From positions 1 to 38,060 of the forward strand of contig CAZBIH010000001.1 in assembly GCA_964492015.1 (NCBI GenBank): DNA of 38,060 bases, in the 5' to 3' direction. The DNA comes from an uncultured Planctomycetia bacterium. Lineage in GTDB: Bacteria > Omnitrophota > Gorgyraeia > 2-02-FULL-51-18. Shown piece by piece: positions 1,900 to 28,995 of the stretch (its first letter is position 1; the number at the start of each line of letters is the position of its first letter). The position numbers and the translations under genes were made by a program. Below the pieces are notes generated by a model that was not told where the DNA came from, ran no database searches, and saw only the letters and a list, made by a program, of their open reading frames with translations.

Positions 1900-1902
1900 A
1901 AC

Positions 1903-3683: not shown

Positions 3684-3684
3684 T

Positions 3685-6505: not shown

Positions 6506-7044
6506 ATCATCTCCTTTGACGGTATACGCCCGGACACAAGCGCCAGCGCCAGCAAAGAGACGTGCAGCGCGCTTGAAAATTCGCCGGTCTTTAGTTTCTG
6601 AGCCAGGTCCTTTTTAGAGCATAAACACATTTTTAAAGATTCCGCGAGATCGACGCCTCTGCCGGTCGGGACAGCACCGGCTGCGAAATAACAATGCATG
6701 CGGTTACCCAGCCTGCCGGTGTCCGGATACAAAACTCCCAGAAGTTCCATGCGGGGCGCTTCATAACCGGTTTCCTCGCGCAATTCCCGGACCGCCGCTT
6801 TTTCGGGAGACTCATTTAAATCCACGTGCCCGCTGGGAAATTCCAGCGTGACCTGCTCCACGGCGGGACGATACTGTTTCACTAAAATAATGTCTTGCTC
6901 TGTGGTTACCGCAAGAACCGCGACATAATCGGAGGTTTGAACGACATAGTATGGGTCCTGCGGACTGTCCGCGTACTGTTTGGCGATAAGCGACATCCAT
7001 CTGGATTCAAATACGGGCTCGGCAGTCAAAAGTTTATTTTTCAT
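6502..7044 (-). CDS. Nudix hydrolase (nucleoside-diphosphate-sugar pyrophosphatase-like)
   Basis: Nudix box GHVDLNESPEKAAVRELREETGYEA. The ORF-track start at 7143 is TTG and overlaps the upstream gene. The ATG at 7044 gives an ATGA overlap. Confidence 0.85.
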   Translation of the reverse strand: MKNKLLTAEPVFESRWMSLIAKQYADSPQDPYYVVQTSDYVAVLAVTTEQDIILVKQYRPAVEQVTLEFPSGHVDLNESPEKAAVRELREETGYEAPRMELLGVLYPDTGRLGNRMHCYFAAGAVPTGRGVDLAESLKMCLCSKKDLAQKLKTGEFSSALHVSLLALALVSGRIPSKEMI

Positions 7045-8427: not shown

Positions 8428-10131
8428 TCACGGGACTCGGGGCGATCCTATAATTTCGGGGCGGCTTTGTTCGTCCATCGAGTAAACAATGTCCGCGTTT
8501 TCTAGCAGAGACGAGCGGTGCGAAACCAGAAGGATATTGACCTTGCCTCTCAGGCGCTGGATCAGCGAACGGACCACTTCCTCGGACGCGGTATCCAAAG
8601 CGCTGGTAGGTTCATCCAGGATCAAAAGCTTGGGACCGCGCAGAAGCGCCCTGGCGAATACCAGCCTTTGGCGCTGGCCCCCCGACAGGTTGAGCCCGCG
8701 GTTGCCGATCACGGTCGCGTAACCCTGAGGCTGTGCCAGGATAAACTCATGAGCGTCCGTCTGACAGCAGGCCGCCTCCAGACGCTCCCGTGATACCTCC
8801 GGGTTTCCCAGCCGTAAATTGTCTTCAATGCTCATGTCATACAAGATCGATTCCTGGGACACATAGGCGACGCTGTCCCTCCAGGAAAATAGGTCAATCC
8901 CGGCCGCATCGATCCCATTGATCAGCACTTTTCCGCAGGTGGGATGGTTCAATCCCACGATCAGATCTAAAAGCGTCGTTTTTCCTGAGCCCGACCTTCC
9001 GCTGATCACCACCAGCTTGTTTTTTTCAATTTTCAAATTTACATCCCTCAAGACTTCCCCGCTACCCGGATAGGTAAAACCCACGCGGACCAGCTCCAGC
9101 GTTTCAAAACCTGAGACTTTCACGGCTCCCGGCAAAACACGCGCTTGGGATGCTTCCAGAATGAACTGGCGGCAAATAAAATAGGAAGGCAGATTCACTA
9201 CTAAGCGCTGACGGCTCGTCTGGATCTCCATGCCTTTACGGCCGAGACGATAAATAATCATTGATAGGAGTAGGCCGCCTTCAGCCGCGACACCAAAAAA
9301 CTGGCGGCTGACCACTAAAAACAGGCAGACAAAAGCCACCGCCAAAACTTCGGGAAACGTCTCGATGACCGCCCCATAGTTGTAACGCTTAAACATTTTT
9401 TTGCCCAGGCGGTCGTACCCGGTGCGGATGCGCTCCAGCCGGTAAGGCTCCAAATGATTGGCTTTTAGGAATTTGACCGCCACAAGATCCTCAAAGATCT
9501 CTCCATGCAGAGAGCTTTGCATGGAGGCGATCTCGGAAGACACAGCCTTGGACCGGACGATCATCCGCTTCACCGCTAAAAAAGAAACCAGGCCGATGAA
9601 TAGACTGGGGACAAAAGACTGGAACGAGATCAGAAAGCCTAAAGACAAATAGACCAGGATGTTCAGCGATTCGCCCAGAAACTGGATCAGGAGCCGGAAA
9701 GCATTGCCGGCCATCACGGAGTGTTCTCCCACCAGCGACATCAAAAATCCGGATTTCTGGGAAGACGCAAATCTCCATTCGGAATCAAGAAAGTCAGAAA
9801 CGACTTTCTTTTTGATCCCGATCTCAAAATCCACCGCGATCTTTTCAACGAATCTTTTGGCGGTGTAAGAAAAAAGGCTCTTGAGCGAAAAAACAGCGAG
9901 GATAAATCCCGTAAGGACCCAAATGTTCCCGTTCTTCAAAAAATCCGGCATCCAGGCGGTCAAAAGGCCCCCGTCCGGGATCTGCTTGGAGAACAGCCCC
10001 GACAAAAGCGGCAGCACCGCCGAAAATCCGACGCCCTCCAGGACCCCCGCGCTTAAAACGCACAATATCGCGATGTTCGCGCGGACCGGATAGTCCCGGT
10101 AAACGTCCGAGATAAAATCCCGCAGATGCAT
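8428..10131 (-). CDS. Fused TMD-NBD ABC exporter (MsbA/PglK-type, candidate lipid-linked glycan flippase)
   Basis: Six-helix TMD followed by Walker A GRSGSGKTT, signature LSGGQRQR, Walker B LLILDEPTS and an H-loop (VSHR). The ORF-track N-terminal 127 residues overlap the upstream gene and are non-membrane junk. The ATG at 10131 (MHLRDFISDVY) lies 7 nt after the upstream stop. Confidence 0.9.
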   Translation of the reverse strand: MHLRDFISDVYRDYPVRANIAILCVLSAGVLEGVGFSAVLPLLSGLFSKQIPDGGLLTAWMPDFLKNGNIWVLTGFILAVFSLKSLFSYTAKRFVEKIAVDFEIGIKKKVVSDFLDSEWRFASSQKSGFLMSLVGEHSVMAGNAFRLLIQFLGESLNILVYLSLGFLISFQSFVPSLFIGLVSFLAVKRMIVRSKAVSSEIASMQSSLHGEIFEDLVAVKFLKANHLEPYRLERIRTGYDRLGKKMFKRYNYGAVIETFPEVLAVAFVCLFLVVSRQFFGVAAEGGLLLSMIIYRLGRKGMEIQTSRQRLVVNLPSYFICRQFILEASQARVLPGAVKVSGFETLELVRVGFTYPGSGEVLRDVNLKIEKNKLVVISGRSGSGKTTLLDLIVGLNHPTCGKVLINGIDAAGIDLFSWRDSVAYVSQESILYDMSIEDNLRLGNPEVSRERLEAACCQTDAHEFILAQPQGYATVIGNRGLNLSGGQRQRLVFARALLRGPKLLILDEPTSALDTASEEVVRSLIQRLRGKVNILLVSHRSSLLENADIVYSMDEQSRPEIIGSPRVP

Positions 10132-10138
10132 GTCCGGT

Positions 10139-10834
10139 TTATTTATTTTTTGCGGCACGGGCATAGTCCACATTGGCGTCCAAGAATTCCTTTTCATACT
10201 GCAACCACTTGTCTCCGTACGGGTGATCCTTATAATTCTCAAACCAGGGCCCGCCCTCCGTGTAATGAATAAGCTTGGTATAAGCGTCATAATGGTCGAG
10301 CACATTCCAAGTGTTGGGAATATCACCCACTTGCTCATCGGGGATCGGTTCAAAACGGTGAAGCCATTTGGGCGGCATCGTTTCCACGGCCTCCCGGGAC
10401 CAAACCGTAAGCTTCTCGCAATTAAGCAGCATGAAGCTAGACCAGTTTTTCCGCGGGTAAGACGTCTGGACTTTTCCGTCCATCTTGATCGTATTGGTGG
10501 GCCGTTGGTCATGCTTGACGACCCGGAGCGCGTACGGTTTCATATCCAGCTCAAAAACTTCGTTGAGATCCGCCAGGCAAAGCATGTCGCAATCCATAAA
10601 AATGGCCGTGCCCTTATAACCGCAGAGCAGTGGAGTCAAAAAACGGGTGTACGTGAACTCCGTGGACTGCAAAGGATCCTGTGTCCTGCGAAAACCGGGC
10701 TTGACCGCGAGCTCACTCAACTTCAGAGGAATGATCTCCATTGGTTTTTTTGCGTGCTTTTCGATCGAATACTTCAATACCTGATACGCGATATCCTCCC
10801 GACTGTCATACCCGACAAATACTTTATTTTTCAT
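10139..10834 (-). CDS. GT8-like (retaining, GT-A fold) glycosyltransferase
   Basis: 231 aa. It has the N-terminal VFVGYDSRED strand, STEFTYTRFLTP and the DxD motif FMDCDML. The family call is by resemblance. Confidence 0.6.
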   Translation of the reverse strand: MKNKVFVGYDSREDIAYQVLKYSIEKHAKKPMEIIPLKLSELAVKPGFRRTQDPLQSTEFTYTRFLTPLLCGYKGTAIFMDCDMLCLADLNEVFELDMKPYALRVVKHDQRPTNTIKMDGKVQTSYPRKNWSSFMLLNCEKLTVWSREAVETMPPKWLHRFEPIPDEQVGDIPNTWNVLDHYDAYTKLIHYTEGGPWFENYKDHPYGDKWLQYEKEFLDANVDYARAAKNK

Positions 10835-10852: not shown

Positions 10853-12190
10853 TCATTCCCTTTGAAGTGACGAAACAAGCTTGGTGTAGGTCGACAAGAC
10901 ATCTACCGGCTCCCCGCCGGCATAAATTGAATTTCTGATCAGATCCGCATTGTCATAAAGCGCGGAAGGCGGCTCTTTGAGACGCGCACGTTCCACGCCT
11001 GCCAGAAGCTGCTCCAGATCATGGCACTCGATCCCCGCGCCGCTATCTTCAAAGATCGTTCTTCCGCGGTGCAGATACGTGGGATTGATCAATGTCTTGC
11101 CCTGCAGGATCACCTCAAATCCGATACTGGAGCGTACATTAACTGCGGCGTCACACCAGCGAATCAGCGCCACCGAATCCACGATCTCCTGACGGGTCGC
11201 TTTTTTTCCCGGAACCAGTGAAGACAGCCACCGTTTAAAAGACACCGCGCGCGAGGCGTTGATAAGCTCAACATTGGCTTGAGAGGATAATCGGGTACGC
11301 AGATCCATCGGCAGATCGCCCGCGCCTTCGCGTGTATGCTCTTTGATCACCAAATAGATTCGATCATCAGACGCCAGCGACTTGAGCGCCAACAGAACCC
11401 CCTCTTTGTCCACGGTCTTTTCCCAGCGCGGAAGAAAAAATAGAAGCTTTAGCCGGCCCCCCTCGCTTTTCGACGGCTTAAAATCCGGCCAGAAATTCTT
11501 GGCGATCGAGAACCATTCCGGGCAGTAACGGGCGCTACCCAAAAAAACGATTTTTTTCTGTTCTATGAGTTTTTTGTCCCATGGCCCGAAATGATGGCGC
11601 GGATTAGGCTCCACAATGGCGTCAAAAATATTTCTGACCGCAAAATATTCTTCACCTCCCGTTGCCTGAAATTGCTCAGACCCTTCTCCGTGGGATGTGA
11701 GAAAGTGCGCGCCGTGAGGAAGACAGACCAAGGGCACCCTCCGATCTTTACAAGCAGTGACCAGTTTTCCTTCCAAGGTTTCCATTGAAATTTCACCGGG
11801 GCCAAAAGGGTCAAAAATACACACCGCCGGCCGGCGTGACTCGATAAATTTTTCTGCCCATCGCAAATTGAATACAGACTGATCTAAAAAGCTCAGCACT
11901 GTCCTTATTATTATTTTTACCAATGGGTTCACAAACCGCGCCAAAGAAAATTCTCTCAAAAAACCAAGCCCTGGCGCGGAGCCATAATAATAATACATCC
12001 GGCACCGGGAAAACTGCCTCAAAAGAACCAGCCTTGGATCCCGCCGGTAATCCAGCACCTGATTTTTGTCGATTAAAATAACATCCACTTGACGGCCTTC
12101 ACGCAAAAACCTCCAAGCGACGGGGCTCAAATGATCCGTGTCATTGTAAACGCGAAAAAAAATACAAACAGTCCCTGAGGTGTTACGCAT
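10853..12190 (-). CDS. Divergent GT-B-like transferase, TagF/Glyphos_transf-like motif order (paralogue B); function unknown
   Basis: Its motif series parallels the neighbouring paralogue: FLGSARYCPEW, KLLFFLPRWEK, LVIKEHTRE and CDAAVNVRSSIGFEVILQGKTLINP. The ATG at 12190 gives an 8-nt ATGCGTAA overlap. An alternative ATG at 12238 would give a 56-nt overlap. Confidence 0.5.
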   Translation of the reverse strand: MRNTSGTVCIFFRVYNDTDHLSPVAWRFLREGRQVDVILIDKNQVLDYRRDPRLVLLRQFSRCRMYYYYGSAPGLGFLREFSLARFVNPLVKIIIRTVLSFLDQSVFNLRWAEKFIESRRPAVCIFDPFGPGEISMETLEGKLVTACKDRRVPLVCLPHGAHFLTSHGEGSEQFQATGGEEYFAVRNIFDAIVEPNPRHHFGPWDKKLIEQKKIVFLGSARYCPEWFSIAKNFWPDFKPSKSEGGRLKLLFFLPRWEKTVDKEGVLLALKSLASDDRIYLVIKEHTREGAGDLPMDLRTRLSSQANVELINASRAVSFKRWLSSLVPGKKATRQEIVDSVALIRWCDAAVNVRSSIGFEVILQGKTLINPTYLHRGRTIFEDSGAGIECHDLEQLLAGVERARLKEPPSALYDNADLIRNSIYAGGEPVDVLSTYTKLVSSLQRE

Positions 12191-14021
12191 AAACCGTCTT
12201 TTCAATGAAATCAACCGCTCTTTTTGTCCCCTGTCCATCCATTTTTCCCAACCAATCCTCGCCGTGGGTATTAGAAAAACTGTTCGTCTTAACAGAAAGC
12301 CGGGAAATGGCCGCCTCGAGAGATCCTGCGTCGCGAAATATTTGGCAAATACCTGTCTCTGCCAAACTGTCAGCTTCAGAGCTCAGCTCTTCATTGAAAT
12401 CCAAATAAAATACAGGGATACCCATCATGGCCGCCTCGAAAATGGTCGTAGACCAGCTGGCTGTCAGCAAAACATCGCAGCCGGCAAGTAATTTATAAAG
12501 ATCATCGTCCGCCGACATCAGATCACAATCAACATCCGAAAGAAGAGAGCGCAAAAGTATTTCCCAATTCTTCTCCTCTTCTTTGTAGTGCGGTTTGATC
12601 ACAAGCCGGAACGGCGTGCGAGCCGCGATGCCGGCAAGAACGGATAAACTTGCTACCTGAGTCGATCGATAGCAAAAAAAGTCACTGCCCACGTATCCTA
12701 ATTCTGCGGGATTGTGGGGAACAAGATAACTTGCGCTGTATAAAAGCCTGGGAACGCCTTCCCGCCCGGCTTTTTGGCGTGTTCCGGAAATATTTTTAAG
12801 AATGTCAAAACGCGGTATCCCCGTAACGACAAGCCTCCGGGCGTTCCAACCCCGTCTTTCATAAGATCTTTTCTCTTCCTGTGAATGGACCAGTGTCCAT
12901 GAATTGGCAAACTCGCGGTAGGCATCGGGCACTTCAAAATCGGTACGCCAAATAGAGTGGGACAGACAAAAAACAGGGACGGCATTGGCCTCAAAGGTGC
13001 TGGCCGCAAAACCCCTCAAAGAAAAGTCCTCATCCACAAGCAGCGCCCTGGCTTTAAAAGAAGAGGCGGCTTCCTGATAGCACAAGACATGACTGACGAA
13101 ACCTCTTATCCTTTTTTCAACCAAGGGCCATAGCTTTCCCAAAACAAGATCCGGCATATCAAGATCCCCAAACATCCAATCCCCCGATCCACGCGCGCGC
13201 AAGAATACGGTTCTGGCGGCCTCCAGCATTTTGTCCGCCTGTTCCGGTATTCTCTCGGGGACAAAAGAACTTTCAAATTCCGACGCCAGATAATAAGGGA
13301 TCGAATGGGTAATTGCAAAAAAAAGTATATCTTTATGAAGATCATGATCATAAATAACGACACTTTTTTTTCTACGTTTCAACTCTTGCGCCGCCGCTTT
13401 TAAATGCCTCAGAGAACCGTAAACAACGTACGCCCCCTTCGCCCCCGGACCGCGAAAAAAAAGGTAAACGGAAAAGATCATCTTTTTGAACCTTTTTTTT
13501 AAATGTGGGGAGGCTTTGTGGGGCGCCTCTGAAATTAACGGGCATGCCATCGTGCGGACATCTCTGCCCGAGGATTCCGCCCGCCGTGCCAGAAAATAAT
13601 TCAGCGAAACGTTTCCGTCGGGCCTCCCGTCGACCCAAGGTTTCAAGTCCTCAAAAACATAAACAGGGCCTTTGGTAGATCCCAAAAAAATTTTGGCGAA
13701 GAAATGATTCTTGATCGTCTGGGAGAAAAGAGTAGAAAAATAAAAATGCAGCGCTTTAAAAATATATTCGCCGTCCGGCGTGGCCTGCCGGGCAAGCCGG
13801 ATCATGCGGGCGGCGGCGGACGCGCTCCAAGAATTTATTTCATTCCAGCGGTTCCTGAAAGAACGCTCGTCCAGATACGAAAAATTAATTTTCTTCTCTT
13901 TGAAAAAATCAAACATCTCCTCGTTGTCGGTAAAGATCTCCAGATCCTCTTGAAAAGCGCCGGCGGCACGCAGGCATTCATATTGGCGGATCGAGGAGAT
14001 GGCGACCGCGGGCTTGGGCAT
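12183..14021 (-). CDS. Divergent GT-B-like transferase, TagF/Glyphos_transf-like motif order (paralogue A); function unknown
   Basis: About 612 aa and soluble. VVTGIPRFDIL, RLLYSASY, LVIKPHYKEEE and CDVLLTASWSTTIFEAAMMGIPVFYLDF follow the order G-x-PR-x-D / LYAPT / K-x-H-x / ITDYSS seen in CDP-glycerol glycerophosphotransferase-type GT-B enzymes. The ATG at 14021 lies 1 nt after the upstream TAG. The track start at 14030 is TTG. Confidence 0.55.
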   Translation of the reverse strand: MPKPAVAISSIRQYECLRAAGAFQEDLEIFTDNEEMFDFFKEKKINFSYLDERSFRNRWNEINSWSASAAARMIRLARQATPDGEYIFKALHFYFSTLFSQTIKNHFFAKIFLGSTKGPVYVFEDLKPWVDGRPDGNVSLNYFLARRAESSGRDVRTMACPLISEAPHKASPHLKKRFKKMIFSVYLFFRGPGAKGAYVVYGSLRHLKAAAQELKRRKKSVVIYDHDLHKDILFFAITHSIPYYLASEFESSFVPERIPEQADKMLEAARTVFLRARGSGDWMFGDLDMPDLVLGKLWPLVEKRIRGFVSHVLCYQEAASSFKARALLVDEDFSLRGFAASTFEANAVPVFCLSHSIWRTDFEVPDAYREFANSWTLVHSQEEKRSYERRGWNARRLVVTGIPRFDILKNISGTRQKAGREGVPRLLYSASYLVPHNPAELGYVGSDFFCYRSTQVASLSVLAGIAARTPFRLVIKPHYKEEEKNWEILLRSLLSDVDCDLMSADDDLYKLLAGCDVLLTASWSTTIFEAAMMGIPVFYLDFNEELSSEADSLAETGICQIFRDAGSLEAAISRLSVKTNSFSNTHGEDWLGKMDGQGTKRAVDFIEKTVYA

Positions 14022-14022
14022 C

Positions 14023-15228
14023 CTATTCAACGACCCATTTCATCACCCATTTTTCGTCGACTTTTTCCCATACATTGGATTTTTCGCGGTATTTGTCCAT
14101 GACATACCAAAAGAAATCTTCGTCGATTTGCATGTAATCCAAAAACCAGCGGAAATGCCTTTTCGGAAACTCCCCGTCATAGCGCCGCACCAGCCGTACC
14201 GCTTCTTCACGCGTCATATGATGACGACGGATATCCGACTGCGCGTCCCGCGAGGCCCGGCACATGCCGAATTTCATATAACTCAAGTACCAATGAAAAC
14301 CGTCCGCCTTGTCGTCGATGCTGGCGTATTTGGTGTAAGTCCCCTCCGATCGGCCTTCGGAATTGGCCTCAAAACCGCAGTGCTTCACCGCGTAATAATA
14401 ATTTTCCTGGGGCGTCCATTTGTGATAATACGAATACCAGTGCATCTGGGTCCCATTTTTTATAATCTGGTCCAAGTGCGGCGCTTTATAAAACTGCAAG
14501 CAGCTGTCCCCAGCCTCTTTTTTGGTCAAAATGCCGCGTTCGAGTCCTGTGGCAACCAACTGATCGACCGAGCCGCCCTTAAAATATTCGGACTCCCATT
14601 CTTCGGGGGTTTCCTTGGGAAGATGCTTGTATTTTTCGCTTCCTCCGTACTCAAGCTCTCCGTTTTCTCCGTAAAAAATGAGCTTGATGCCAAATCGCGT
14701 CGCCATGTGGAACGCCCAGGCTTTTTGCCCGTAAATGAACGGCTCCCACGCGTCCCCTTTCAATTCAAAGGCCAACCGCGTCAATTTGCGGTGAATTTTT
14801 CCGTCAGGCTGCCCCATGATATTGGTGAAACCCGAATGAATGAAATTCCATAAATTGAGCCATCCGATCTCGGTGTACTCAAACGGGCACCAGGTCACGC
14901 ACAGAGGATGCATGCCATAACGGTGCTTCAGTTGGTGAGCGACATAAGCACTGTCTTTTCCGCCGCTGCCCGGAACTACGACATCAAAATCTCCGGTCCG
15001 GCTGCGATGCTGATCGCAGAGGATCTCCAACTCCCGGCCGCGCTTGGCCCAGTCGATCGAGTGGTCCTTTTCATAAGCCCACTGGCAGGCAGCGCAGATC
15101 CCCTGCTCGTTAAAACGCGTCCGGGGCCGCTGGTTGGATACAACGCAATTTTTACAAAATTTTATTTCTTTGGAGAGGGAGTCAAATTGCCTGTCCAGAG
15201 ATTGAAACGACGGGTTTAGTTGATCCAC
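14023..15228 (-). CDS. N-acetyl-sugar amidotransferase, PP-loop ATP-pyrophosphatase family (WbuX/WbpG/PseA-like)
   Basis: PP-loop VVPGSGGKDS and an N-terminal Cys cluster CKNCVVSNQRP..GICAACQW. GTG start at 15228 preceded by AAGGGGGAG. It lies adjacent to the HisH/HisF paralogues, as in known acetamidino-sugar loci. Confidence 0.8.
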   Translation of the reverse strand: MDQLNPSFQSLDRQFDSLSKEIKFCKNCVVSNQRPRTRFNEQGICAACQWAYEKDHSIDWAKRGRELEILCDQHRSRTGDFDVVVPGSGGKDSAYVAHQLKHRYGMHPLCVTWCPFEYTEIGWLNLWNFIHSGFTNIMGQPDGKIHRKLTRLAFELKGDAWEPFIYGQKAWAFHMATRFGIKLIFYGENGELEYGGSEKYKHLPKETPEEWESEYFKGGSVDQLVATGLERGILTKKEAGDSCLQFYKAPHLDQIIKNGTQMHWYSYYHKWTPQENYYYAVKHCGFEANSEGRSEGTYTKYASIDDKADGFHWYLSYMKFGMCRASRDAQSDIRRHHMTREEAVRLVRRYDGEFPKRHFRWFLDYMQIDEDFFWYVMDKYREKSNVWEKVDEKWVMKWVVE

Positions 15229-15237
15229 GGCTCCCCC

Positions 15238-15879
15238 TTAAACTTTTCCGGAGATAAAATTTGCGTATATCTTCAATCCGGCCTCGCCGCTGCGTTCCGG
15301 GTGAAATTGGCAACCGGTGATATTTTTGTGCCGTACCACCGAACAAAATTCGTTGGAACCGTACACCGTAAGCGCCAGCGCGTCCCTCGTATCCTCCGGA
15401 ACCACGCGATAGGAATGAACAAAATACATGAAGGGGTCCTTTTCCAAACCCTCCAGAACCGAACCCTCCCAACTCGGCCCGGAAGATGAAGGTTTGAGAG
15501 AATTCCATCCGATCTGCGGGATCTTGTAATGATCGCCCGGATCCCCCGGCTTTAATCGGATAACGCGCCCTCTGATCAAATCCAATCCTGAATGCAGGCC
15601 ATTTTCCTCGGATCGGCTTAATAGAAGCTGCATCCCCAAACAAATTCCCAGAAGAGGCTTTCCGGATCCTGCGTAGTTCTTGACCGCGTCCACCAGGCCG
15701 TACTCCGTCAGATGTTTCATCCCGGACTCGAACGCCCCCACGCCGGGCAAAACAAGCCTGTCCGCGTGTAAGATCTCCTCTTTATTATTGGAGACTTTGG
15801 CCGGATCCCCCACCCTCTTCAGAGCGCTTTGCACGCTATAAAGATTTCCTACACCATAGTCGACGATCACGGTCTTCAT
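15238..15879 (-). CDS. hisH: Class I glutamine amidotransferase, HisH paralogue (WbuY-type)
   Basis: Motifs VDYGVGNL, LPGVGAF, the nucleophile elbow LGICLGMQLL, and GCQFHPERS. ATGA overlap with the hisF-like stop. No other his genes are present. Confidence 0.9.
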   Translation of the reverse strand: MKTVIVDYGVGNLYSVQSALKRVGDPAKVSNNKEEILHADRLVLPGVGAFESGMKHLTEYGLVDAVKNYAGSGKPLLGICLGMQLLLSRSEENGLHSGLDLIRGRVIRLKPGDPGDHYKIPQIGWNSLKPSSSGPSWEGSVLEGLEKDPFMYFVHSYRVVPEDTRDALALTVYGSNEFCSVVRHKNITGCQFHPERSGEAGLKIYANFISGKV

Positions 15880-16829
15880 GGTAGCGCTGTCTTGCGCTCA
15901 GGAGAATATTTTATTTTTGGTAACGGGCGAATGGGCACGCCGTTCTCGCATAAATATTTTTTAATTTCAGGCAACGAGATCCTGTCCGTCTGAACGTCTT
16001 TAAAACCTCCATATCCTTCGCGCAGAAAATCAATGTTACCCGAATCAATGTCTTCGCCCATACGAAGCCTCGGCTCATTAAACGACATCCAACGCCTGTC
16101 ATCCCCCGGAGGCGCCGCGTAATAATAATGAAAGCAGGACGCGGCGCTGACCGCGTCCGCTTTGCCGCGTCGGATCACGTCTAAAAAATCCTCTTTTTTG
16201 CCCGCACCGCCGCAGACCACCACAGGCACCGGAACTGTCTCAGATACTTTCGAAGTGAAGTCGATATCAAAACCCCTCCCCATCCCTTCCTGGTTGATGG
16301 AAGTCAGAAGGATCTCGCCCGCGCCCAGATCCACGGCCCGCCGCACCCAGTCATAGGCGTCAACTCCTGTCGGTTGGCGGCCATAATCCACCCACACCTC
16401 ACAAAAACCGTTTTTCTGTTTATAAAATTCAACGCTGGCGACAATACACTGGGAACCGAAAAACTTGGACGCATCACTCAACAAAGAGGGATTTTCAATA
16501 GCAGCCGTGTTGATCGCGACCTTGTCGGCCCCAGCTCTCAATAATTGCTGAATATCCTGAATGCTGCGGATGCCGCCCGCGACAGTTAACGGAATAAAAA
16601 TTTTCTCGGCTGTTTTGCGGATGTATTCCACCAATGAGTTCCGTTGATAAAGACTCGCCACCGTATCATAAAAAATAAGCTCGTCAGCGCCTTCCCGGTA
16701 ATAAATTTCGGCAAATACCTCCGGAGTGCCCAACACGCGGTGGCCGTCAAGCTGGATACCCTTGATCAGGTTGGGGCCCTTGATGTCCAACCGTGGAATG
16801 ATGCGGATATTTCCGGTATTAGTTGCCAT
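15876..16829 (-). CDS. hisF: HisF-like (beta/alpha)8 cyclase/synthase subunit (WbuZ-type), with an insertion of about 47 aa near the C-terminus
   Basis: Motifs IIPRLDIKG, TVAGGIRS, GADKVAINTAA, GAGEILLTSI, VCGGAGK and AASCFH, ending with LPEIKKYLCENGVPIRP. Confidence 0.9.
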   Translation of the reverse strand: MATNTGNIRIIPRLDIKGPNLIKGIQLDGHRVLGTPEVFAEIYYREGADELIFYDTVASLYQRNSLVEYIRKTAEKIFIPLTVAGGIRSIQDIQQLLRAGADKVAINTAAIENPSLLSDASKFFGSQCIVASVEFYKQKNGFCEVWVDYGRQPTGVDAYDWVRRAVDLGAGEILLTSINQEGMGRGFDIDFTSKVSETVPVPVVVCGGAGKKEDFLDVIRRGKADAVSAASCFHYYYAAPPGDDRRWMSFNEPRLRMGEDIDSGNIDFLREGYGGFKDVQTDRISLPEIKKYLCENGVPIRPLPKIKYSPERKTALP

Positions 16830-17514
16830 AAAATTCCTTTTTTAATTGATACAAAAATGTTTCGGCGACCCAAAGATCTTCGATGGTATCGATATCCACC
16901 GAATGCGCGCGATCCATGATATACGCGAATGATCTTTTTGAAAACCAGGATCCGTTCTTAAGAAGGTACTTCCAGCCGGCGATATAGATCGCGCCGTTCA
17001 GGGTATAAAACTTTTTATTTTCGGCCGGCCGAGGATTCTTTAAAAAATCTTTGAGGCTGAGAGAAGCGGGCAAATGATTGGTCCAATGCGGCGGATGAGA
17101 GGCCTGGGTCACGCTCACGACCGCGCTGGATTTTTTTTGGTTGAAAATTTGCAGCGCTTGAGCGATATGCCCTGAATTGCGCAACGGCGAAGTAGGCTGA
17201 AGAAACGCTACCGCGTCAAACTTCTCCCCCCGCCCGTCGTAACGGGCCATGAAATGCCGTAAAGCATCCATGGAAGTGGCTTTGTCGCCCGCAAGCCGCG
17301 CGGGCCTCAAAAAAAGTACTTCCGCGCCGTATTTTTTTGCGGCTGCAGCGATCTTCGGGCTATCGGTGTCCACCGCCACACGGGCAATTCCAGGGCATTG
17401 GAGCGCGGCCTGGATGCTCCATGCCAACAGAGGTTTCCCGCCAAGCTTCATGAGATTTTTATACGGAAGCCTTTTGGAGCCACCGCGCGCCGGGATAACG
17501 GCCAAGACCTTCAC
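16819..17514 (-). CDS. neuA: CMP-nonulosonate synthetase (acylneuraminate cytidylyltransferase family; LegF/NeuA-like)
   Basis: The N-terminal AVIPARGGSKRLPYKNL, FLQPTSPLR and the C-terminal VDIDTIEDL are the family signature. GTG start at 17514 in a GTGA overlap. Confidence 0.85.
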   Translation of the reverse strand: MKVLAVIPARGGSKRLPYKNLMKLGGKPLLAWSIQAALQCPGIARVAVDTDSPKIAAAAKKYGAEVLFLRPARLAGDKATSMDALRHFMARYDGRGEKFDAVAFLQPTSPLRNSGHIAQALQIFNQKKSSAVVSVTQASHPPHWTNHLPASLSLKDFLKNPRPAENKKFYTLNGAIYIAGWKYLLKNGSWFSKRSFAYIMDRAHSVDIDTIEDLWVAETFLYQLKKEFYGN

Positions 17515-18560
17515 CGAAACACCGATGCGAACTCGCCATTGGCACGCTCCAGGTCGTCCATACGGCCGATGTCGATCCAGTACTCGCGGATCGGGAACGC
17601 CGAGATCTTCATTTTTTTGGCCATCAGTTTCTCAAGGAACGCGGGCATGTCGGTGTGTTTTTTTTTCTTTAAAAATTTTAGGGCTTGGGGCTCCAGCACG
17701 TAAATACCCGCGTTTACAAAAAAACGGTGTACCGGCTTCTCATCAATGCTTCGCACCATATTCTTTTGGGTGGAAACCACACCGTACGGGACTTGAAAAT
17801 CATACTCACGGATACACATCGTACCCGCCGCATTCTGCTCGCGATGAAAGTCCAAGAGCTGCCGGAAATTGACCTTGGTCAGAAGATCGCCGTTCATCAC
17901 CAGGACAGGTTCCGGGGGGCTTGAAGGCAAAAGAGACAACGCTCCCGCGGTACCCAATTTTGTATTTTCATGCAAATAGTGAATACGGATCCCCCAGGCC
18001 GAACCATCCTTGAAATGGTCGCGGATCATCTTATCCTGATAGTTGACCGAGAGATAAAAGTTGCGGAACCCGTGCTCGATAAAGTTTTCTAAGATCGTTT
18101 CCAGGATGGGCTTCTCCCCTACCTTCAGAAGCGGCTTTGGGCAATCTTGGGTCAGCGGACGCAGGCGTGTCCCCAGCCCGCCCGCCATCAGCACCACCCA
18201 ATTCTCCCGGACTTTCAAGCGATGAAGATCGTCCAAAAGCTCCAGTCCCGCGACCCGCCCCTTGGAGTCTAAAAGCGGGATCTGTCGTATTAATTTCTGC
18301 TCCATGATCTTCTCAAGCTCGGACCTCTTTTCTCCCAGAGGAGCCGTGACAGGTTTTTTTTGCATCACGCGCGTGACGACGTGATCCAGGCCGATGCCCT
18401 TGAGAAGCCCCCGCCGGACATCGCCGTCAGTCACCGTACCCAACAAACGCTGTTTTTCATCCACGACCAGCGCGATGTGGCAATCGCCGCGATCGATCGT
18501 TTCGATAACTTGGCGAATGCGGGTCTGGGAGCCGAGGAGTGTTTTTTGCCAGTCCTTCAT
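17511..18560 (-). CDS. CBS-pair + NTP-transferase fusion (PtmE-like sugar-1-phosphate nucleotidylyltransferase)
   Basis: The N-terminal region has two CBS-like repeats (HIALVVDEKQRLLGTVTDGDVRR, IPLLDSKGRVAGLE). These are followed by VLMAGGLGTRLRPLT and the LVMNGD nucleotidyltransferase motifs. The ATG at 18560 is in an ATGA overlap. The 29 extra ORF-track codons overlap the upstream gene. Confidence 0.85.
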   Translation of the reverse strand: MKDWQKTLLGSQTRIRQVIETIDRGDCHIALVVDEKQRLLGTVTDGDVRRGLLKGIGLDHVVTRVMQKKPVTAPLGEKRSELEKIMEQKLIRQIPLLDSKGRVAGLELLDDLHRLKVRENWVVLMAGGLGTRLRPLTQDCPKPLLKVGEKPILETILENFIEHGFRNFYLSVNYQDKMIRDHFKDGSAWGIRIHYLHENTKLGTAGALSLLPSSPPEPVLVMNGDLLTKVNFRQLLDFHREQNAAGTMCIREYDFQVPYGVVSTQKNMVRSIDEKPVHRFFVNAGIYVLEPQALKFLKKKKHTDMPAFLEKLMAKKMKISAFPIREYWIDIGRMDDLERANGEFASVFR

Positions 18561-19153
18561 GAGGCCACCGGCCTTTTTACCAAAGTATTGGCGGGAATTA
18601 AAAGATGACGGCCCACAGTGACTCCTTGAATGATCACTGCGCCACAACCTACATGCGAGCCCTCACTAATCTTGACGCCGCCGCAGAGAATGGCTCCGGG
18701 GGCAATGTGGACATGGTCTCCGATCCGGCAATCATGATCCACTGACGCGCGCGTATTAATAATGCAATTGTTCCCTAAATGAGTTCCTGCTTGGACCACC
18801 GCGCCTGCCATCACCTGAACGCCTTCGCCCCTTTGAACATCCCGGGCGAGGATCGCTGAAGGATGGATGACTGCGGAAAAAGAATAGCCAGCCGCTTTAA
18901 ACCGTTCGAATATTTGTTTGCGAATCTTGGGGTTTCCGACAGACCCGACTCCGTTCACAAGAAAAGCTTTTTGAGGCAATTTTTTATCCAAAAGGATCTT
19001 GTCTGTACCGAGATAGGGGATCCACCGGCCGGCAACTCGCATCTCTTTTTGTTTGGGATCCACAAACCCCAGAATTTTATTTTCTTGAAGAATCAGGGAG
19101 TCCGCCAACACCCGCGCGTGCCCGCCGCCGCCCACCAGGATCACCGAGTTCAT
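18557..19153 (-). CDS. neuD: NeuD/PglD-family hexapeptide N-acetyltransferase (LegH-like)
   Basis: N-terminal Rossmann-like VILVGGGGHARVL and a C-terminal LbH domain (IGDHVHIAPGAILCGGVKISEGSHVGCGAVIIQGV). The ATG at 19153 is in an ATGA overlap. Confidence 0.8.
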   Translation of the reverse strand: MNSVILVGGGGHARVLADSLILQENKILGFVDPKQKEMRVAGRWIPYLGTDKILLDKKLPQKAFLVNGVGSVGNPKIRKQIFERFKAAGYSFSAVIHPSAILARDVQRGEGVQVMAGAVVQAGTHLGNNCIINTRASVDHDCRIGDHVHIAPGAILCGGVKISEGSHVGCGAVIIQGVTVGRHLLIPANTLVKRPVAS

Positions 19154-20247
19154 GAGGCTATCCTCTCTCCGGCCGCGTAATTTTTCCTCGCCGCTTTGCC
19201 TAAAAGATCCCAATACCGCACCGGCGAAATTCCAGGGCCGGATCTTTTGGCCGCGAGGTCGCCCTCGCTGAATAATTCGCCCGCCCGGATCCGGCGCGCC
19301 GCGACGAGACTCTTCCGAGCGATGGGCCTGTTTTTTTGTTCCGAGGGCGTGACTTTCTTCTGAGCCGAGCCCAGCGCGCGCTCCACGAGGCGGACCGCCT
19401 GGACCATCTGTTTGAATTCAGCCGGTTCCAAAGAAACCCGGTGATCCGGCCCCTCCATGCTGCGATCCAACGTTAAGTGTTTTTCGATGACTTCCGCGCC
19501 GCGTGCGGCCGCCGCGATAGAGACAACAAACCCCGGTGTGTGATCCGACAATCCTACCGCAACACGAAACTCGTCTTTCAAACTATCCATCGCCCGCAAA
19601 TGGACCTCGTCATACGGCGCCGGGTATTCAGTCGTGCATTGAAGCAGGGTGACTTTTTTTTGAATGAGGGCTTGGCCGCGGCGGGACTTGAACGCTTTTT
19701 GAAAAGCTACCCTGGAAGGTTTTTGGGAAACAGCTCGTGTGTAGCCGAACGCCAAAACCCCTAAAGCTTCCCGGATCTCTTCGAGTGTCGACATCCCTGT
19801 GGAAAGAATGACCGGCAACCCTGAGGATGCCAATTCCAGAAGCAGGGGCGCGTTCGTGATCTCGCCTGAGGGAACCTTTAATCTCCGGACCCCTATTTTT
19901 TGGATGAGCATGCGGGCGCTCTCTTCGTCAAAAGGGCTGGATAAAAAATCCAAGCGAAGCTGTTTCGCATAGGTCTTCAATTTTAAATGCGCCGCCTCGT
20001 CCAGCTCCAGAGCTTTCAGCATCTGCAACTGAGAACCTTTCCGCCCGGTCGTTTTCTTTTGATAGAACGCTTTTTTCGCCTCGGCTGTGGCAAGAGCATC
20101 GGCACGAAACGCTTGAAATTTGACCGCGTCAGCGCCCGCGTCGGCCGCGGCCCGCACTAGTTTTTTCGCGAGAACGAAGACGCCGTTGTGATTGACCCCG
20201 GCCTCGGCGATGATATAAACACGCTTGGCGTTTACGGGAACTTTCAT
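19150..20247 (-). CDS. neuB: NeuB-family nonulosonate synthase with C-terminal SAF domain (context: legionaminic acid synthase, LegI-like)
   Basis: Motifs YIIAEAGVNHNG, ADAVKFQ, LSSPFD and GLSDHT, plus the SAF-like tail ARRIRAGELFSEGDLAAKR. ATGA overlap at its start. Confidence 0.9.
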   Translation of the reverse strand: MKVPVNAKRVYIIAEAGVNHNGVFVLAKKLVRAAADAGADAVKFQAFRADALATAEAKKAFYQKKTTGRKGSQLQMLKALELDEAAHLKLKTYAKQLRLDFLSSPFDEESARMLIQKIGVRRLKVPSGEITNAPLLLELASSGLPVILSTGMSTLEEIREALGVLAFGYTRAVSQKPSRVAFQKAFKSRRGQALIQKKVTLLQCTTEYPAPYDEVHLRAMDSLKDEFRVAVGLSDHTPGFVVSIAAAARGAEVIEKHLTLDRSMEGPDHRVSLEPAEFKQMVQAVRLVERALGSAQKKVTPSEQKNRPIARKSLVAARRIRAGELFSEGDLAAKRSGPGISPVRYWDLLGKAARKNYAAGERIAS

Positions 20248-21419
20248 CGCGCGCCCTTCATATCATAAAATCTTTTCATCAAAACACCTTCCAGCGGAAC
20301 AGTTTTAAGCTTTTGCTTGATCTTGAAAGAGTTTCTCCCCCCGGCGCCATAAATGGAACGCATTCCGCTTAAGGAACGTCTGAATTTCCCGGAGAGAGCT
20401 TTTTGGATCGCGCGCACGATCGCCGGCTTGTTTTCGGCGCAGTCAATGACACTTGGATCTTTCAGACGTCCACGCTGCCGGTCCCCCAGATTTACTGTAG
20501 GAACTTTAAACGCCGGGGCTTCGAAGATCCCGCTGGAGGAATTTCCCACGACAACATCCGCCTGTTTCATCAAACTCAAATATTTTTTCTGTCCCAGAGA
20601 AACAAATCCATGCACCCGCCCACGATTCTGCAAAACATAAGCATCGATGCGGCGGTTGACTTGGAGGCCTCCGGTATCCGCGTTGGATTTGGTCATAATC
20701 ACTGTAGCTTCTTTGAAATGATCCAGCGCCACAAAAAGTGCAGACAAAGCTTTTTTCGGGCCTTTTTTATCCAGCGTCACCGGGTGATACGTCACCAGAA
20801 AAACCGGCCGGCGGCCAAGATCGACACCCAACTCTTTTTCCAGCTGTGAAGCCGAAAGAAAATTCATCCGTTTCACCTGGTCCAGGCCTGGCGCGCCAAA
20901 ATTAAAAACCCGGGAAAGCTCTTCCCCCATCTGGATCACGCGGCGGCGGTAAACTTCGGCCGATACAAAATGAAACTGTGCCATTTTAGTGATCGCATGG
21001 CGTATCGCTTCGTCGATAACCCCTTCGCTCGATTCCCCTCCGTGAATATGCGCGATCGGAATGCGTGCTAGCATTGCGGCCTGCGCAGCAGCGAGCATTT
21101 CATAACGGTCGCCGAGGACCACCACGATATCGGGATTTAAATTTTTGAAAACTTTCGCGAAGCCCGCGATGCCTTTTGCCAGGGCACTTGCAATGTCTTC
21201 CGGCGAATCCTTGGCAACCAAGATCGAGACCTTGGCGGACAAACGAAAATTATCCGCTTCAATGGCTTTGTAAGTCAGTCCATGACGTACCGATAGGTGC
21301 GCTCCCGTCGCGACGATCTGCAGTTTCAACGCCCTGTCTTCCCGGATCGCGCGCAAAAACCAATACAGGAGCCCGTAGTCCGCCCGCGAACCCGTGATGA
21401 CGCAGATCTTTCTTATCAT
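20244..21419 (-). CDS. neuC: Hydrolysing NDP-N-acetylhexosamine 2-epimerase (NeuC/LegG-like)
   Basis: Motifs ICVITGSRADYGLL, VVVLGDRYE, IAHIHGGE and GNSSSGI. The ATG at 21419 is in an ATGA overlap. The 25 extra ORF-track codons overlap the upstream gene. Confidence 0.9.
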   Translation of the reverse strand: MIRKICVITGSRADYGLLYWFLRAIREDRALKLQIVATGAHLSVRHGLTYKAIEADNFRLSAKVSILVAKDSPEDIASALAKGIAGFAKVFKNLNPDIVVVLGDRYEMLAAAQAAMLARIPIAHIHGGESSEGVIDEAIRHAITKMAQFHFVSAEVYRRRVIQMGEELSRVFNFGAPGLDQVKRMNFLSASQLEKELGVDLGRRPVFLVTYHPVTLDKKGPKKALSALFVALDHFKEATVIMTKSNADTGGLQVNRRIDAYVLQNRGRVHGFVSLGQKKYLSLMKQADVVVGNSSSGIFEAPAFKVPTVNLGDRQRGRLKDPSVIDCAENKPAIVRAIQKALSGKFRRSLSGMRSIYGAGGRNSFKIKQKLKTVPLEGVLMKRFYDMKGAR

Positions 21420-22585
21420 AAAAAAGAACTCGACGGGATATTGATCAACCGCGCCTCGAGGCTCTCCGCTGTCGACACGTCCATGCGCGGGCATGCGCCG
21501 TACATGGGAAGCTTGTGCATCAGCACCCAGGCGGGCCGGGCCATAAAACCTTTTTGGTTCAACGCAGAAAGAATTTCATTTCTTTGGGAGGAGTTCTCCG
21601 GGTTTAGCAGAAACGCATTGAGCCAATAGTTGCTTTTGGCGAACGGGGGTTCTTCAAAAAAATACAGCCCCTGAAGTTTTAAAAAATTTTCCCGGTAGCG
21701 TGCGGCCAAAGCCCTTTTTTTCTCGAGAAAAACAGGCAGCTGCTCCAGTTGAGCGCAGCCCAAGGCCGCGTTGATGTTCGGGAGCCGGTAATTGTAGCCC
21801 AGCTCATCATGATAAAAATTCCACGCGTGAGGGGCCTTGGCGGTAGTCGTCCGGTGTTTGATTCGTTGAGCGTCCGTGGCATCCCGGCACAGCACCGCTC
21901 CGCCGCCGCCCGCCGTCACAATTTTATTTCCGTTGAAACTGAGTATGCCAAACCGGCCCGTCGTACCCGTATGACGTCCTTTATAGAAGCTTCCCAGAGA
22001 TTCCGCGGCGTCTTCGATCAAAATTAGATGAAATTCTTCACAGACCCTCTGCAGAGCGTCCAAGTCCACTGGATGGCCAAACGTGTGCACCGCCACCAAC
22101 GCTTTTATTTTCGCGCCGGTGCGCCGGTTAAATAAAGCGCCGCTCTTAATTTTGGAGCTCTCCTGCAAATGTTTTTTCAGTTTCACCGGATCCACGCCCA
22201 ATGTTTTTTCATCCGAATCCACCAGGTGCGGAAGCGCGCCGCAATACGCCACCGCGTTGGCTGTAGCCACAAAGGTGAGGTCCGGCACCAGGACTTCGTC
22301 CCCGGCTTCAACGCCCGCCGCCCTCAGCGCGATATGCAAAGCCGATGTGCCATTGACGCACGCGACCGCGTGGGCCGAGCCGGTGTAGGCCGCTATCTCG
22401 GACTCAAAACGGTCCACAAATTTGCCCGCCGAGGAGACCCAGCCGGTGTCCAGGCATTCTTTGACGTATTCCCATTCATGCCCGGTGAAACTCGGCTCAT
22501 GCAAAAGCGCCTTGCGCGATAGTGTTTTGTCTAAAACATCGCAAACCTGCAGGGCTAACGGCGCCGGCGTAGTTTTGGCCATCAT
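21416..22585 (-). CDS. DegT-family PLP-dependent aminotransferase (LegC/PglE-like)
   Basis: Motifs VACVNGTSALHIAL, LIEDAAESLG and ILSFNGNKIVTAGGGG (Lys). ATGA overlap at both ends. Confidence 0.9.
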   Translation of the reverse strand: MMAKTTPAPLALQVCDVLDKTLSRKALLHEPSFTGHEWEYVKECLDTGWVSSAGKFVDRFESEIAAYTGSAHAVACVNGTSALHIALRAAGVEAGDEVLVPDLTFVATANAVAYCGALPHLVDSDEKTLGVDPVKLKKHLQESSKIKSGALFNRRTGAKIKALVAVHTFGHPVDLDALQRVCEEFHLILIEDAAESLGSFYKGRHTGTTGRFGILSFNGNKIVTAGGGGAVLCRDATDAQRIKHRTTTAKAPHAWNFYHDELGYNYRLPNINAALGCAQLEQLPVFLEKKRALAARYRENFLKLQGLYFFEEPPFAKSNYWLNAFLLNPENSSQRNEILSALNQKGFMARPAWVLMHKLPMYGACPRMDVSTAESLEARLINIPSSSFL

Positions 22586-28982: not shown

Positions 28983-28995
28983 AAAACCACCCTCT

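Follow-up and report, generated by a model that had tools for sequence, protein, structure and literature searches.

The closest described systems to the one considered here are the nonulosonate (NulO) transferases BFO_1060, Tanf_01245 and TFUB4_00887 of Tannerella forsythia. Deletion of the corresponding gene removes the terminal pseudaminic acid (Pse) or legionaminic acid (Leg) derivative from the S-layer O-glycan, and complementation restores it; the enzymes are encoded just downstream of the locus for the cytidine monophosphate (CMP)-activated sugars CMP-Pse or CMP-Leg, a TagB/GT-B domain has been noted in them, and D/E-D/E-G and H-P are the motifs of bacterial sialyltransferases (PMC5420450). 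Their acceptor is a lipid-linked glycan, which is flipped afterwards. In the case of the TagF-like enzymes, an invariant histidine of the N-lobe serves as the base, and two conserved histidines (H444 and H584 in TagF) define the family (PMC10901376), while in the retaining CMP-ulosonate transferases of families GT99, GT107, GT118 and GT140 the nucleophile is the Asp of a QxxxD motif (PMC12887879). In this study, we have analysed two adjacent genes, here called A and B, of contig CAZBIH010000001.1 from an uncultured bacterium of the Omnitrophota; the window, that is, the whole stretch of DNA analysed, is the complete contig of 38,060 bp. The two genes are placed between the genes for CMP-legionaminic acid and its acetamidino group and a pair encoding a GT8-like protein and an ATP-binding cassette (ABC) exporter, and an earlier note on this DNA had pointed to their products as candidates for an undescribed nonulosonate transferase or polymerase. 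Comparison of their fold, families and neighbourhoods suggests that A and B are probably, though far from certainly, inverting, His-dependent CMP-legionaminate transferases that act on a lipid-linked glycan.

Two divergent paralogues with a GT-B fold

The two open reading frames (ORFs) are present on the minus strand where the earlier note had described them, and the lengths of their products, 612 and 445 residues, are also those of the public gene calls (P0001 and P0002). A starts at the ATG at 14021, an alternative TTG at 14030 giving 615 residues, and the open frame of B reaches 12238 (461 residues), with the 445 residues counted from the ATG at 12190. The genes overlap by 8 nt, from the TAA of A (12183-12185) to the ATG of B (at 12190). 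No hydrophobic transmembrane-like segments were found in either protein, and both have a basic pI (8.0 for A, 9.1 for B).

The A family was gathered by an exhaustive HMMER scan of the representatives of clusters formed at 50% identity; 275 clusters were found at E<1e-3, of which 72 reach E<1e-30, and almost all are full-length, at 600-640 residues; a word-indexed homologue search with A, either as a single sequence or as a 60-sequence profile, returned A alone. The conservation counts and per-member profile scans given below refer to 60 sequences for the A family and to the 12 homologues that make up the B family. A pairwise BLASTP comparison of A with B is not significant (E 0.11). When the family profiles are aligned by HHalign, residues 200-612 of A match residues 14-445 of B over 366 columns (99.2% probability, E 2.7e-19), and the shared motifs are paired with each other. 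Since the profiles align in this way, A and B are, as judged from their sequences, genuine and very divergent paralogues, and the ordered motif series that the earlier note had seen in both goes beyond chance.

The paired motifs are SH355 of A with PH159G of B, G401-x-P-R-x-D406 with G218-x-x-R221, LLYSA with FFLPxW, K476-P-H478 with K283-x-H285-x-R287, and S524...E529 with S354-S355...E359. Two conserved histidines, one per lobe, occupy equivalent positions in this alignment, namely H355 (60/60) and H478 (56/60) in A and H159 and H285 (both 12/12) in B, and by analogy the position of A H355 would be that of H444 in TagF and of H300 in TarL (PMC10901376). Conserved in A are G202, H206, D330-E331-D332, S354-H355, S380, E383, G401-x-P-R-[YF]-D406, K476-P-H478, S524, E529 and R601; in B they are D17, D19, H159-G160, G218, R221, W226, F251, P254, W256, K283, H285, R287, S339, D347, S354-S355, E359 and K365. 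A reads D-E-D-[FY] at its acidic motif, and the acidic residue is partly conserved in B. As the earlier note had observed, the canonical His-Pro is replaced, by P-H-Y in A and by H-T in B: the residue after H478 is never a conserved Pro in the A family, which reads P-H-[YSN], and position 286 of B is Thr in 10 of the 12 relatives and Pro in the other two.

The first 197 residues of A form a module of their own, in which D32, N33, E52, W59, W65, K104, N105, G136 and N137 are conserved. PDB and profile searches found no relatives of it, nor does it match the B family; a match to importin (E 0.17) was dismissed as chance.

In confident AlphaFold2 models (predicted local distance difference test 91.9 and predicted template modelling score 0.91 for A; 85.8 and 0.86 for B), both proteins have the GT-B fold. 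Foldseek against the PDB returned only GT-B proteins. The uridine diphosphate N-acetylglucosamine (UDP-GlcNAc) 2-epimerases WecB/NeuC come first for both models and are followed by the transferases PglA, MurG, WaaA and macrolide glycosyltransferases and, for A, by TagF (3l7k, E 8.9e-8, rank 42). As the TM-scores, between 0.4 and 0.65, are typical of any two-lobed GT-B protein, the structural comparison settles the fold, not the subfamily. Neither it nor the profile searches gave a confident match to an unrelated family.

The order of this structural ranking suggests one alternative, namely that A and/or B are epimerase- or hydrolase-type GT-B enzymes (Epimerase_2-like or PseG-like) working on a nucleotide-sugar intermediate of the pathway. 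WecB and NeuC share with the two proteins an acidic residue after N-lobe strand 4 and a C-terminal G-D-G...R block, Epimerase_2 (PF02350) is weakly matched by 23 of the 60 A-family members (best 1.1e-6, below threshold; no match for the window proteins), and a profile of 45 more distant A members aligns with WecB (3dzc) across nearly the whole GT-B (1.8e-4) and, weakly, with PseG. In the WecB alignment, however, the E-A of HVEAGLR is opposed by Ser-His: its Glu (Glu117, a catalytic residue of WecB) falls on Ser354-His355 of A. Moreover, the ties in sequence are stronger to Glyphos_transf and BFO_1060 than to Epimerase_2, the TM-scores would suit any GT-B protein, and a canonical NeuC is already encoded in the window (1.6e-137) and in many related loci. 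Because NeuC is present and the HVEAGLR Glu is replaced, we regard an epimerase role as highly improbable.

Relationships to TagF-like and nonulosonate-linked families

The earlier note could not place the two proteins in a well-known family, and curated models agree. Neither Pfam nor NCBIfam gave a match for B, Glyphos_transf is matched by neither protein at E<=0.1, no curated family threshold is reached, and direct PDB sequence searches with either protein gave noise only. The matches of A are sub-threshold and C-terminal: TIGR04396, 'surface carbohydrate biosynthesis protein' (E 8.5e-12, 44.9 bits against a cut-off of 125), NF046086, the BFO_1060 family (E 4e-7, 29.5 bits against a cut-off of 200; residues 471-610 on profile positions 221-364 of 365), TIGR04331, the LIC12162 family (E 0.004), and DUF6716 (E 5e-4). 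Those to BFO_1060 and TIGR04396 start at residue 468-471, and they recur in the family, 44 of the 60 members matching both, again below threshold and in the C-terminal lobe only (best 1.7e-16 and 2.7e-13, respectively).

Among Pfam families, the most matched is Glyphos_transf (PF04464), which is found in 37 of the 60 A-family members at E<=1 (best 1.6e-13) and in no member of the B family. Three of ten close A homologues exceed its gathering score of 22.1 bits (P0017, 26.5; P0019, 24.7; P0036, 27.9 bits), with matches to profile positions 133-366 of 367 that begin just upstream of the G401-x-P-R-[YF]-D406 motif and span the S-E-x-E/G-x-P-R-x-D region to the C-terminus. Generic GT1/GT4 C-terminal domains are matched by about 21 of the 60 and Capsule_synth by 4 of the 60. 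The profile of the more distant A members finds a GT4 protein, the TagF-like capsule polymerase Cps3D (6.8e-5), KpsC (0.015) and TarL (0.019), besides WecB. The B profile matches weakly (0.017) the CMP-3-deoxy-D-manno-octulosonate (CMP-Kdo)-dependent GT99 domain of WbbB (5fa0/8csb), over the S-S-[IV]-G-x-E...G-K block, and weak matches to Glyco_transf_4 or Capsule_synth are seen in a few relatives of B. At the level of profiles, the likeness to TagF claimed in the earlier note is thus supported for the family, the window proteins themselves being too divergent to be recognized.

This likeness, with the TagF order of the G-x-P-R-x-D, hydrophobic Y/F-x-P/A, K-x-H and Ser-rich blocks and the Cps3D and TarL matches, is also what would be expected if A and/or B were TagF-type phosphotransferases that pass on a phospho-alcohol or a sugar-phosphate from a donor like cytidine diphosphate (CDP)-glycerol or CDP-ribitol and so form the phosphodiester links of a teichoic-acid-like polymer in which Leg is also present. 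The resemblance to TagF, TagB and TarL extends to the GT-B fold, a C-terminal D-G-x-x-T-x-R block and CMP as leaving group and, probably, to the two conserved histidines; unlike those enzymes, the window proteins are undetected by the family model and stand in a CMP-nonulosonate context with no CDP-polyol synthesis genes nearby. CMP leaves from CDP-polyol and from CMP-nonulosonate donors alike. The validated NulO transferases of Tannerella are equally TagB-like, and therefore the likeness to TagF does not discriminate between donors.

In the case of BFO_1060 (NF046086), the parallels are a soluble GT-B protein, TagB/TagF-like matches, a CMP-Pse/CMP-Leg pathway nearby and the match over about 140 C-terminal residues of A, whose gene shares an operon with those for the CMP-NulO synthetase and NeuB, one gene module away. 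In contrast to these enzymes, A has 612 rather than about 445 residues, owing to its 197-residue N-terminal module, and scores 29.5 against 200 bits, B has no match, and neither protein has the H-P dipeptide that they share with bacterial sialyltransferases. The proteins LIC12162 (TIGR04331) and LIC13510 (TIGR04326) resemble A in length (about 590-610 residues) and genomic niche, and TIGR04396, TIGR04331 and TIGR04326 are all uncharacterised families of O-antigen/NulO clusters; a relationship of the A family to them was not retained, as profile comparisons with single LIC12162 and LIC13510-like proteins are unconvincing (E 0.024 and 2.7e-4, respectively).

The families GT38, GT42, GT52 and GT80 of sialyltransferases have no Pfam match in A or B at E<=0.1, nor do they appear among the listed families of their relatives (the top 25 for the A family). 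WbbB (GT99), KpsC/KpsS (GT107), the pseudaminyltransferase KpsS1 (GT118) and KrkA (GT140) are comparable to A and B in their modified GT-B fold, CMP-ulosonate donors and association with ABC transporters; they differ from them in QxxxD, which is absent from A and B, and both Rossmann lobes look complete in our models. The only conserved glutamines, Q13 of A and Q363 of B, neither precede the C-lobe histidine nor are followed by a conserved Asp, so that no conserved Q-x-x-x-D is found in either family. The retaining mechanism of Kdo and Pse transferases, raised by the weak WbbB and KpsC matches, was rejected for this reason, and a TagF-like or inverting-sialyltransferase-like mechanism is the better fit.

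Gene neighbourhoods in the window and in related loci

Nearly all genes of the window are on the minus strand, and A and B follow a complete legionaminic-acid-type gene set (Table 1). The WbuX stop (14023-14025) stands two bases ahead of the ATG of A, the TGA of B (10853-10855) is followed by the ATG of the GT8-like gene at 10834, and the ATG of the ABC exporter at 10131 comes seven bases beyond the GT8-like stop at 10139. Because they overlap or abut, the spacing of the wbuX-A-B-GT8-ABC genes indicates likely co-expression with the donor pathway. The mechanical ORF of the exporter (8428-10512, 694 residues) is about 380 bases longer at its upstream end and so runs into the GT8-like gene; translation almost certainly begins with the ATG at 10131, giving 567 residues. 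The exporter is a probable flippase or exporter of a lipid-linked glycan. As the earlier note had stated, no sialyltransferase-family gene is found in the window: the large ORFs of the 38-kb contig contain neither sialyltransferase-family domains nor Maf/DUF115, and no other NulO-transferase candidate was found among them.

Table 1. Genes, modules and conserved motifs of the A and B region, with positions in the window (profile matches as E values)
Feature	Positions	Strand	Description
Gene A	12183..14021	-	612 aa, soluble; candidate CMP-legionaminate glycosyltransferase, family-specific N-terminal module plus TagF-like GT-B
Gene B	10853..12190	-	445 aa, soluble GT-B; distantly paralogous to A residues 200-612, putative second CMP-ulosonate transferase
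A residues 1-197	13431..14021	-	Conserved N-terminal alpha/beta module, not in B; HHalign A-B match begins at A residue 200
A D330-E331-D332	13026..13034	-	Acidic motif ending N-lobe strand; D332 58/60, E331 52/60; aligns with WecB HGD (Asp95)
A S354-H355	12957..12962	-	Invariant N-lobe His (H355 60/60, S354 57/60); pairs with B H159; candidate catalytic base
A G401-x-P403-R404-[YF]-D406	12804..12821	-	G401 and D406 invariant; P403 58/60, R404 57/60
A K476-P477-H478	12588..12596	-	Second conserved His, C-lobe start; K476 56/60, H478 56/60
A S524-T525...E529 (W-S-T-x-x-x-E)	12435..12452	-	Ser/Thr-rich putative nucleotide-binding block; S524 56/60, E529 59/60
B H159-G160	11711..11716	-	N-lobe His invariant, 12/12; aligned with A S354-H355
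B K283-E-H285-T-R287	11330..11344	-	Second invariant His, 'HP-like' motif; H285 and R287 12/12
B S354-S355-I-G-x-E359	11114..11131	-	Ser-rich block; E359 12/12, S355 10/12
Small GT8-like glycosyltransferase	10139..10834	-	231 aa, conserved neighbour of B; Glyco_transf_8 8.9e-7
Fused transmembrane and nucleotide-binding domain ABC exporter (MsbA/PglK/HepA-like)	8428..10131	-	567 aa; ABC_tran 5.7e-31, HepA-family 3.9e-81, PglK 2.5e-46
Acetamidino module	14023..16829	-	WbuX amidotransferase, HisH-like, WbuZ/HisF-like
WbuX amidotransferase	14023-15228	-	TIGR03573 3.8e-101
HisH-like	15238-15879	-	TIGR01855 2.9e-63
WbuZ/HisF-like	15876-16829	-	TIGR03572 6e-77
CMP-legionaminic acid pathway	16819..23583	-	Complete legionaminic-acid-type gene set upstream of A
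CMP-NulO synthetase	16819-17514	-	CTP_transf_3 8.2e-26
PtmE-like CBS nucleotidyltransferase	17511-18647	-	NTP_transferase+CBS
NeuD-type acetyltransferase	18557-19213	-	TIGR03570 3.3e-60
NeuB	19150-20247	-	TIGR03569 1.2e-137
NeuC	20244-21494	-	TIGR03568 1.6e-137
LegC-type aminotransferase	21416-22585	-	DegT 2.6e-88
LegB-type dehydratase	22582-23583	-	GDP_Man_Dehyd 1.9e-73

Relatives of A and B were compared in 41 loci from genomes and metagenomes, the locus scan being made with a 12-sequence alignment of A. Metagenome-assembled genomes (MAGs) of Candidatus Omnitrophota, a phylum known from metagenomes alone, account for 7 of the 10 genome matches. Relatives of both proteins lie overwhelmingly inside NulO or Kdo activation clusters. 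Of the 16 non-redundant A loci for which 10 kb of sequence or more was available, 12 have a NeuB or CMP-NulO synthetase gene within 10 kb, and NulO or acetamidino genes, one or more, are found in 14; the homologues are thus not mainly in settings that lack the pathway. The order that recurs is PtmE, a GFO/IDH/MocA oxidoreductase, CMP synthetase, a short-chain dehydrogenase, A, a Wzx-type flippase (Polysacc_synt) and GT2 enzymes.

These neighbourhoods also bear on the nature of the donor. A Pfam census covered 13 loci and the 135 ORFs that lie no more than 6 kb from A. CTP_transf_3 occurs in 8 of these loci, Wzx-type families in 9, GT2 enzymes in 10 and methyltransferases in 10, and of the activating enzymes that form CMP-sugars only CTP_transf_3, the CMP-NulO synthetase family, is common close to A. 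The window yielded no cytidylyltransferase for glycerol-3-phosphate or ribitol-phosphate, and neither the TagD type (CTP_transf_like) nor the IspD type is among the 25 commonest neighbour families of the 13 loci (at least three matching ORFs each); a motif scan found no ORF with both TagD motifs and one ORF, in L012, with an HxGH-type motif alone. A CDP-alcohol phosphatidyltransferase gene, present in five A-type loci (L002:5419-6177 and, as cluster c13, L006, L008, L023 and L024) and not in the window, is the sole hint of CDP-alcohol chemistry near the A family, and it counts in favour of phosphotransferase activity. Set against the cytidylyltransferase results and the TagB-like character of the Tannerella enzymes, it leaves us to consider phosphodiester formation by A and/or B unlikely.

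Export genes differ between the loci. Clustering of neighbours placed a Wzx flippase cluster in 11 loci, and A with Wzx and without B in 11 of the 19 A loci; in most loci the flippase gene comes right after A (L003, L006, L007, L008, L018, L019 and L023-L026 were compared), and L026 combines A and Wzx with a B-like protein. A Wzx gene is missing from the window, L013 and L002, which have instead B and a fused ABC exporter, with the GT8-like gene in the window and L013. These last two share one gene order (A, B, GT8-like, ABC), and the B protein of L013 is 66% identical. The export gene around the A-type transferase is interchangeable, either Wzx or an ABC exporter.

A paralogous pair of transferases coupled directly to an ABC exporter, as in the window and L013, recalls the systems for polysialic acid, or those of KpsS/KpsC with KpsMT, and A and B, possibly with the GT8-like protein, could by analogy form a polymerase for a Leg homopolymer or a Leg-containing repeat exported by the ABC protein. 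In favour of polymerization, a poly-Leg antigen of the Legionella type would call for acetamidino-Leg genes such as these. The extra N-terminal domain of A also counts for it, recalling those of TagF-like polymerases (PMC10901376). However, the pairing of A with Wzx in the absence of B points to the addition of single residues to a repeat unit or an oligosaccharide more than to processive polymerization, the exporter is a fused MsbA/PglK-type half-transporter and not a Wzm/Wzt or KpsMT pair, and no chain-length or terminator module was seen. We judge such a polymerase to be quite unlikely.

B is rare (12 homologues) and missing from most A loci. When it occurs without A, another NulO-cluster protein of about 600 residues is present, a true LIC12162 member in L015 (1.1e-75) and a LIC13510-like protein in L017. 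Relatives of B adjoin CTP_transf_3 and NeuB in L002 and L015. In L017 (7412-13553), the B homologue, with a canonical H-P, lies between KdsA-like, KpsF-like and CTP_transf_3 genes on one side and a second CTP_transf_3 with NeuB on the other, so that one transferase is flanked by two different CMP-ulosonate pathways. The NulO locus L015, which encodes the LIC12162-family protein together with a B homologue, has two WbuX-type N-acetyl-sugar amidotransferase genes flanking the HisH/HisF pair (15982-19842). A protein of about 220-230 residues with a weak, partial GT8 match comes directly after B in the window (10139-10834), L013 (11368-12045) and L017 (11323-11988); as it trails B in three otherwise different loci, it suggests that B and the small GT8-like protein are a conserved functional pair.

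The rarity of B, its lack of any match to NulO-linked families and the weak Glyco_transf_4 matches of a few relatives would suit a division in which only A is a Leg transferase, B being a GT-B enzyme for another donor, such as a nucleoside diphosphate (NDP)-sugar, or, with its catalytic function reduced, a partner for the GT8-like protein. Yet B retains all the motifs that A shares with TagF-like enzymes having CMP as leaving group, namely both histidines, R287 and the Ser-rich block, its relatives directly adjoin CMP-ulosonate synthetase genes in L002 and L017, and two of them have the canonical H-P. A role for A alone is in our view very unlikely. B is a trimmed paralogue in which the two histidines, the Ser-rich block and the basic residues are preserved; it always occurs beside genes for CMP-ulosonate activation, often with the GT8-like gene as a neighbour, and most likely adds a second ulosonate.

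Other parts of the window may encode further glycan functions. Two polytopic membrane proteins without a Pfam or NCBIfam match, at 7041-8339 (432 residues, about 8 hydrophobic segments; in a local GC dip of 0.44 against about 0.52) and at 27813-29006 (397 residues, about 6 segments), could be unrecognised GT-C, ligase or polymerase-type proteins. Between 24000 and 31000, the plus-strand AT skew is strongly positive (0.2-0.34); this stretch has minus-strand genes for large membrane proteins (PMT_2, YfhO-like, a protein without assignment and MBOAT), then SGNH and AlgX-like proteins, and looks like a module for glycan O-acetylation and GT-C transfer. A second amino-deoxy-sugar pathway (C-methyltransferase, epimerase/dehydratase, GT2, LegC/PseC-like aminotransferase, acetyltransferase, NDP-sugar dehydrogenase and Nudix hydrolase) lies at 625-6505 and 35151-37740, with further GT2 genes and a third DegT aminotransferase, which argues that the glycan has several unusual sugars besides Leg.

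A possible route for legionaminic acid transfer

The comparisons above show the fold and paralogy of A and B, their conserved residues, their family ties and their gene neighbourhoods; from these we infer the donor, the acceptor, the stereochemistry and the order of action as follows. Both would be peripheral-membrane TagF-like GT-B glycosyltransferases, and the donor would be the CMP-activated Leg derivative made by the genes immediately upstream, probably in its 5-acetamidino form. The C-lobe would bind CMP, through K-P-H478 and S524-T...E529 in A and through K-x-H285-x-R287 and S-S...E359 in B. The N-lobe histidine (H355 in A, H159 in B), aided by acidic residues (D330-E-D332 in A), would deprotonate the acceptor hydroxyl, allowing it to attack C2 of the nonulosonate and to displace CMP with inversion. 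The acceptor may be a lipid-linked (undecaprenyl-type) oligosaccharide, assembled at the cytoplasmic face, to which A would add the Leg residue typical of these loci and B, with the adjacent GT8-like transferase, one more ulosonate, which would be another Leg or else a Leg attached to a hexose added by the GT8-like protein. The finished glycan would then cross the membrane through the adjacent ABC exporter or, in most related loci, through the Wzx encoded after A.

A number of observations weigh against CMP-legionaminate transfer by A and B. The closest structural neighbours of both models are UDP-GlcNAc 2-epimerases and not transferases, and the best-supported Pfam relationship is with phosphotransferases that use CDP-glycerol and not with sugar transferases. 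The H-P dipeptide canonical for sialyltransferases is missing, and the window proteins fall below every curated cut-off. In Bacillus subtilis, the TagB-like SpsB, encoded beside a CMP-Leg pathway, is not needed for Leg transfer (PMC7439481). The members of the families that we found are environmental sequences, mostly from Candidatus Omnitrophota MAGs, with no or generic protein names, and, as the contig ends at 38 kb, a canonical sialyltransferase may sit elsewhere in the genome.

The computational checks suggested in the earlier note all favoured its interpretation. Of the two roles that the earlier note had left open, transfer is supported by the link to BFO_1060 and by the genomic context, and polymerization found no specific support; its description of the proteins as an undescribed kind holds in part, because TagB/TagF-like NulO transferases have already been proposed in Tannerella. 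What is new are the N-terminal module of A, the variants of the 'HP' motif and two families that no curated model catches, with members unnamed or generically named in the public sources checked; the concept of a TagB-like NulO transferase is not. The advance is thus incremental, the function being the conditional part of it. A more far-reaching possibility is that A, B, the GT8-like protein and the ABC exporter form an exporter-coupled assembly line in which two TagF-like enzymes of phosphotransferase-type ancestry polymerize a Leg-containing chain; we hold this, too, to be quite improbable, and, if true, it would represent the first polymerase for legionaminic acid and would link teichoic-acid polymerases directly, in evolution, to sialic-acid-type transferases.

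Glycoengineers now depend on promiscuous sialyltransferases, and to our knowledge almost no legionaminic-acid transferases are known, so that A and B are useful, though not revolutionary, candidates. According to a 2024 paper, information on native legionaminic-acid transferases 'is very limited in general' (PMC11356810). In this regard, the A family, with its 275 clusters, conserved architecture and consistent association with the Leg pathway, and the rarer B family offer concrete candidates for Leg-installing enzymes. In Candidatus Omnitrophota, they show that the same transferase can be combined with either of two export routes, Wzx or an ABC exporter, and they lend support to the view that CMP-nonulosonates are the donors for one branch of the TagF-like phosphotransferase superfamily.

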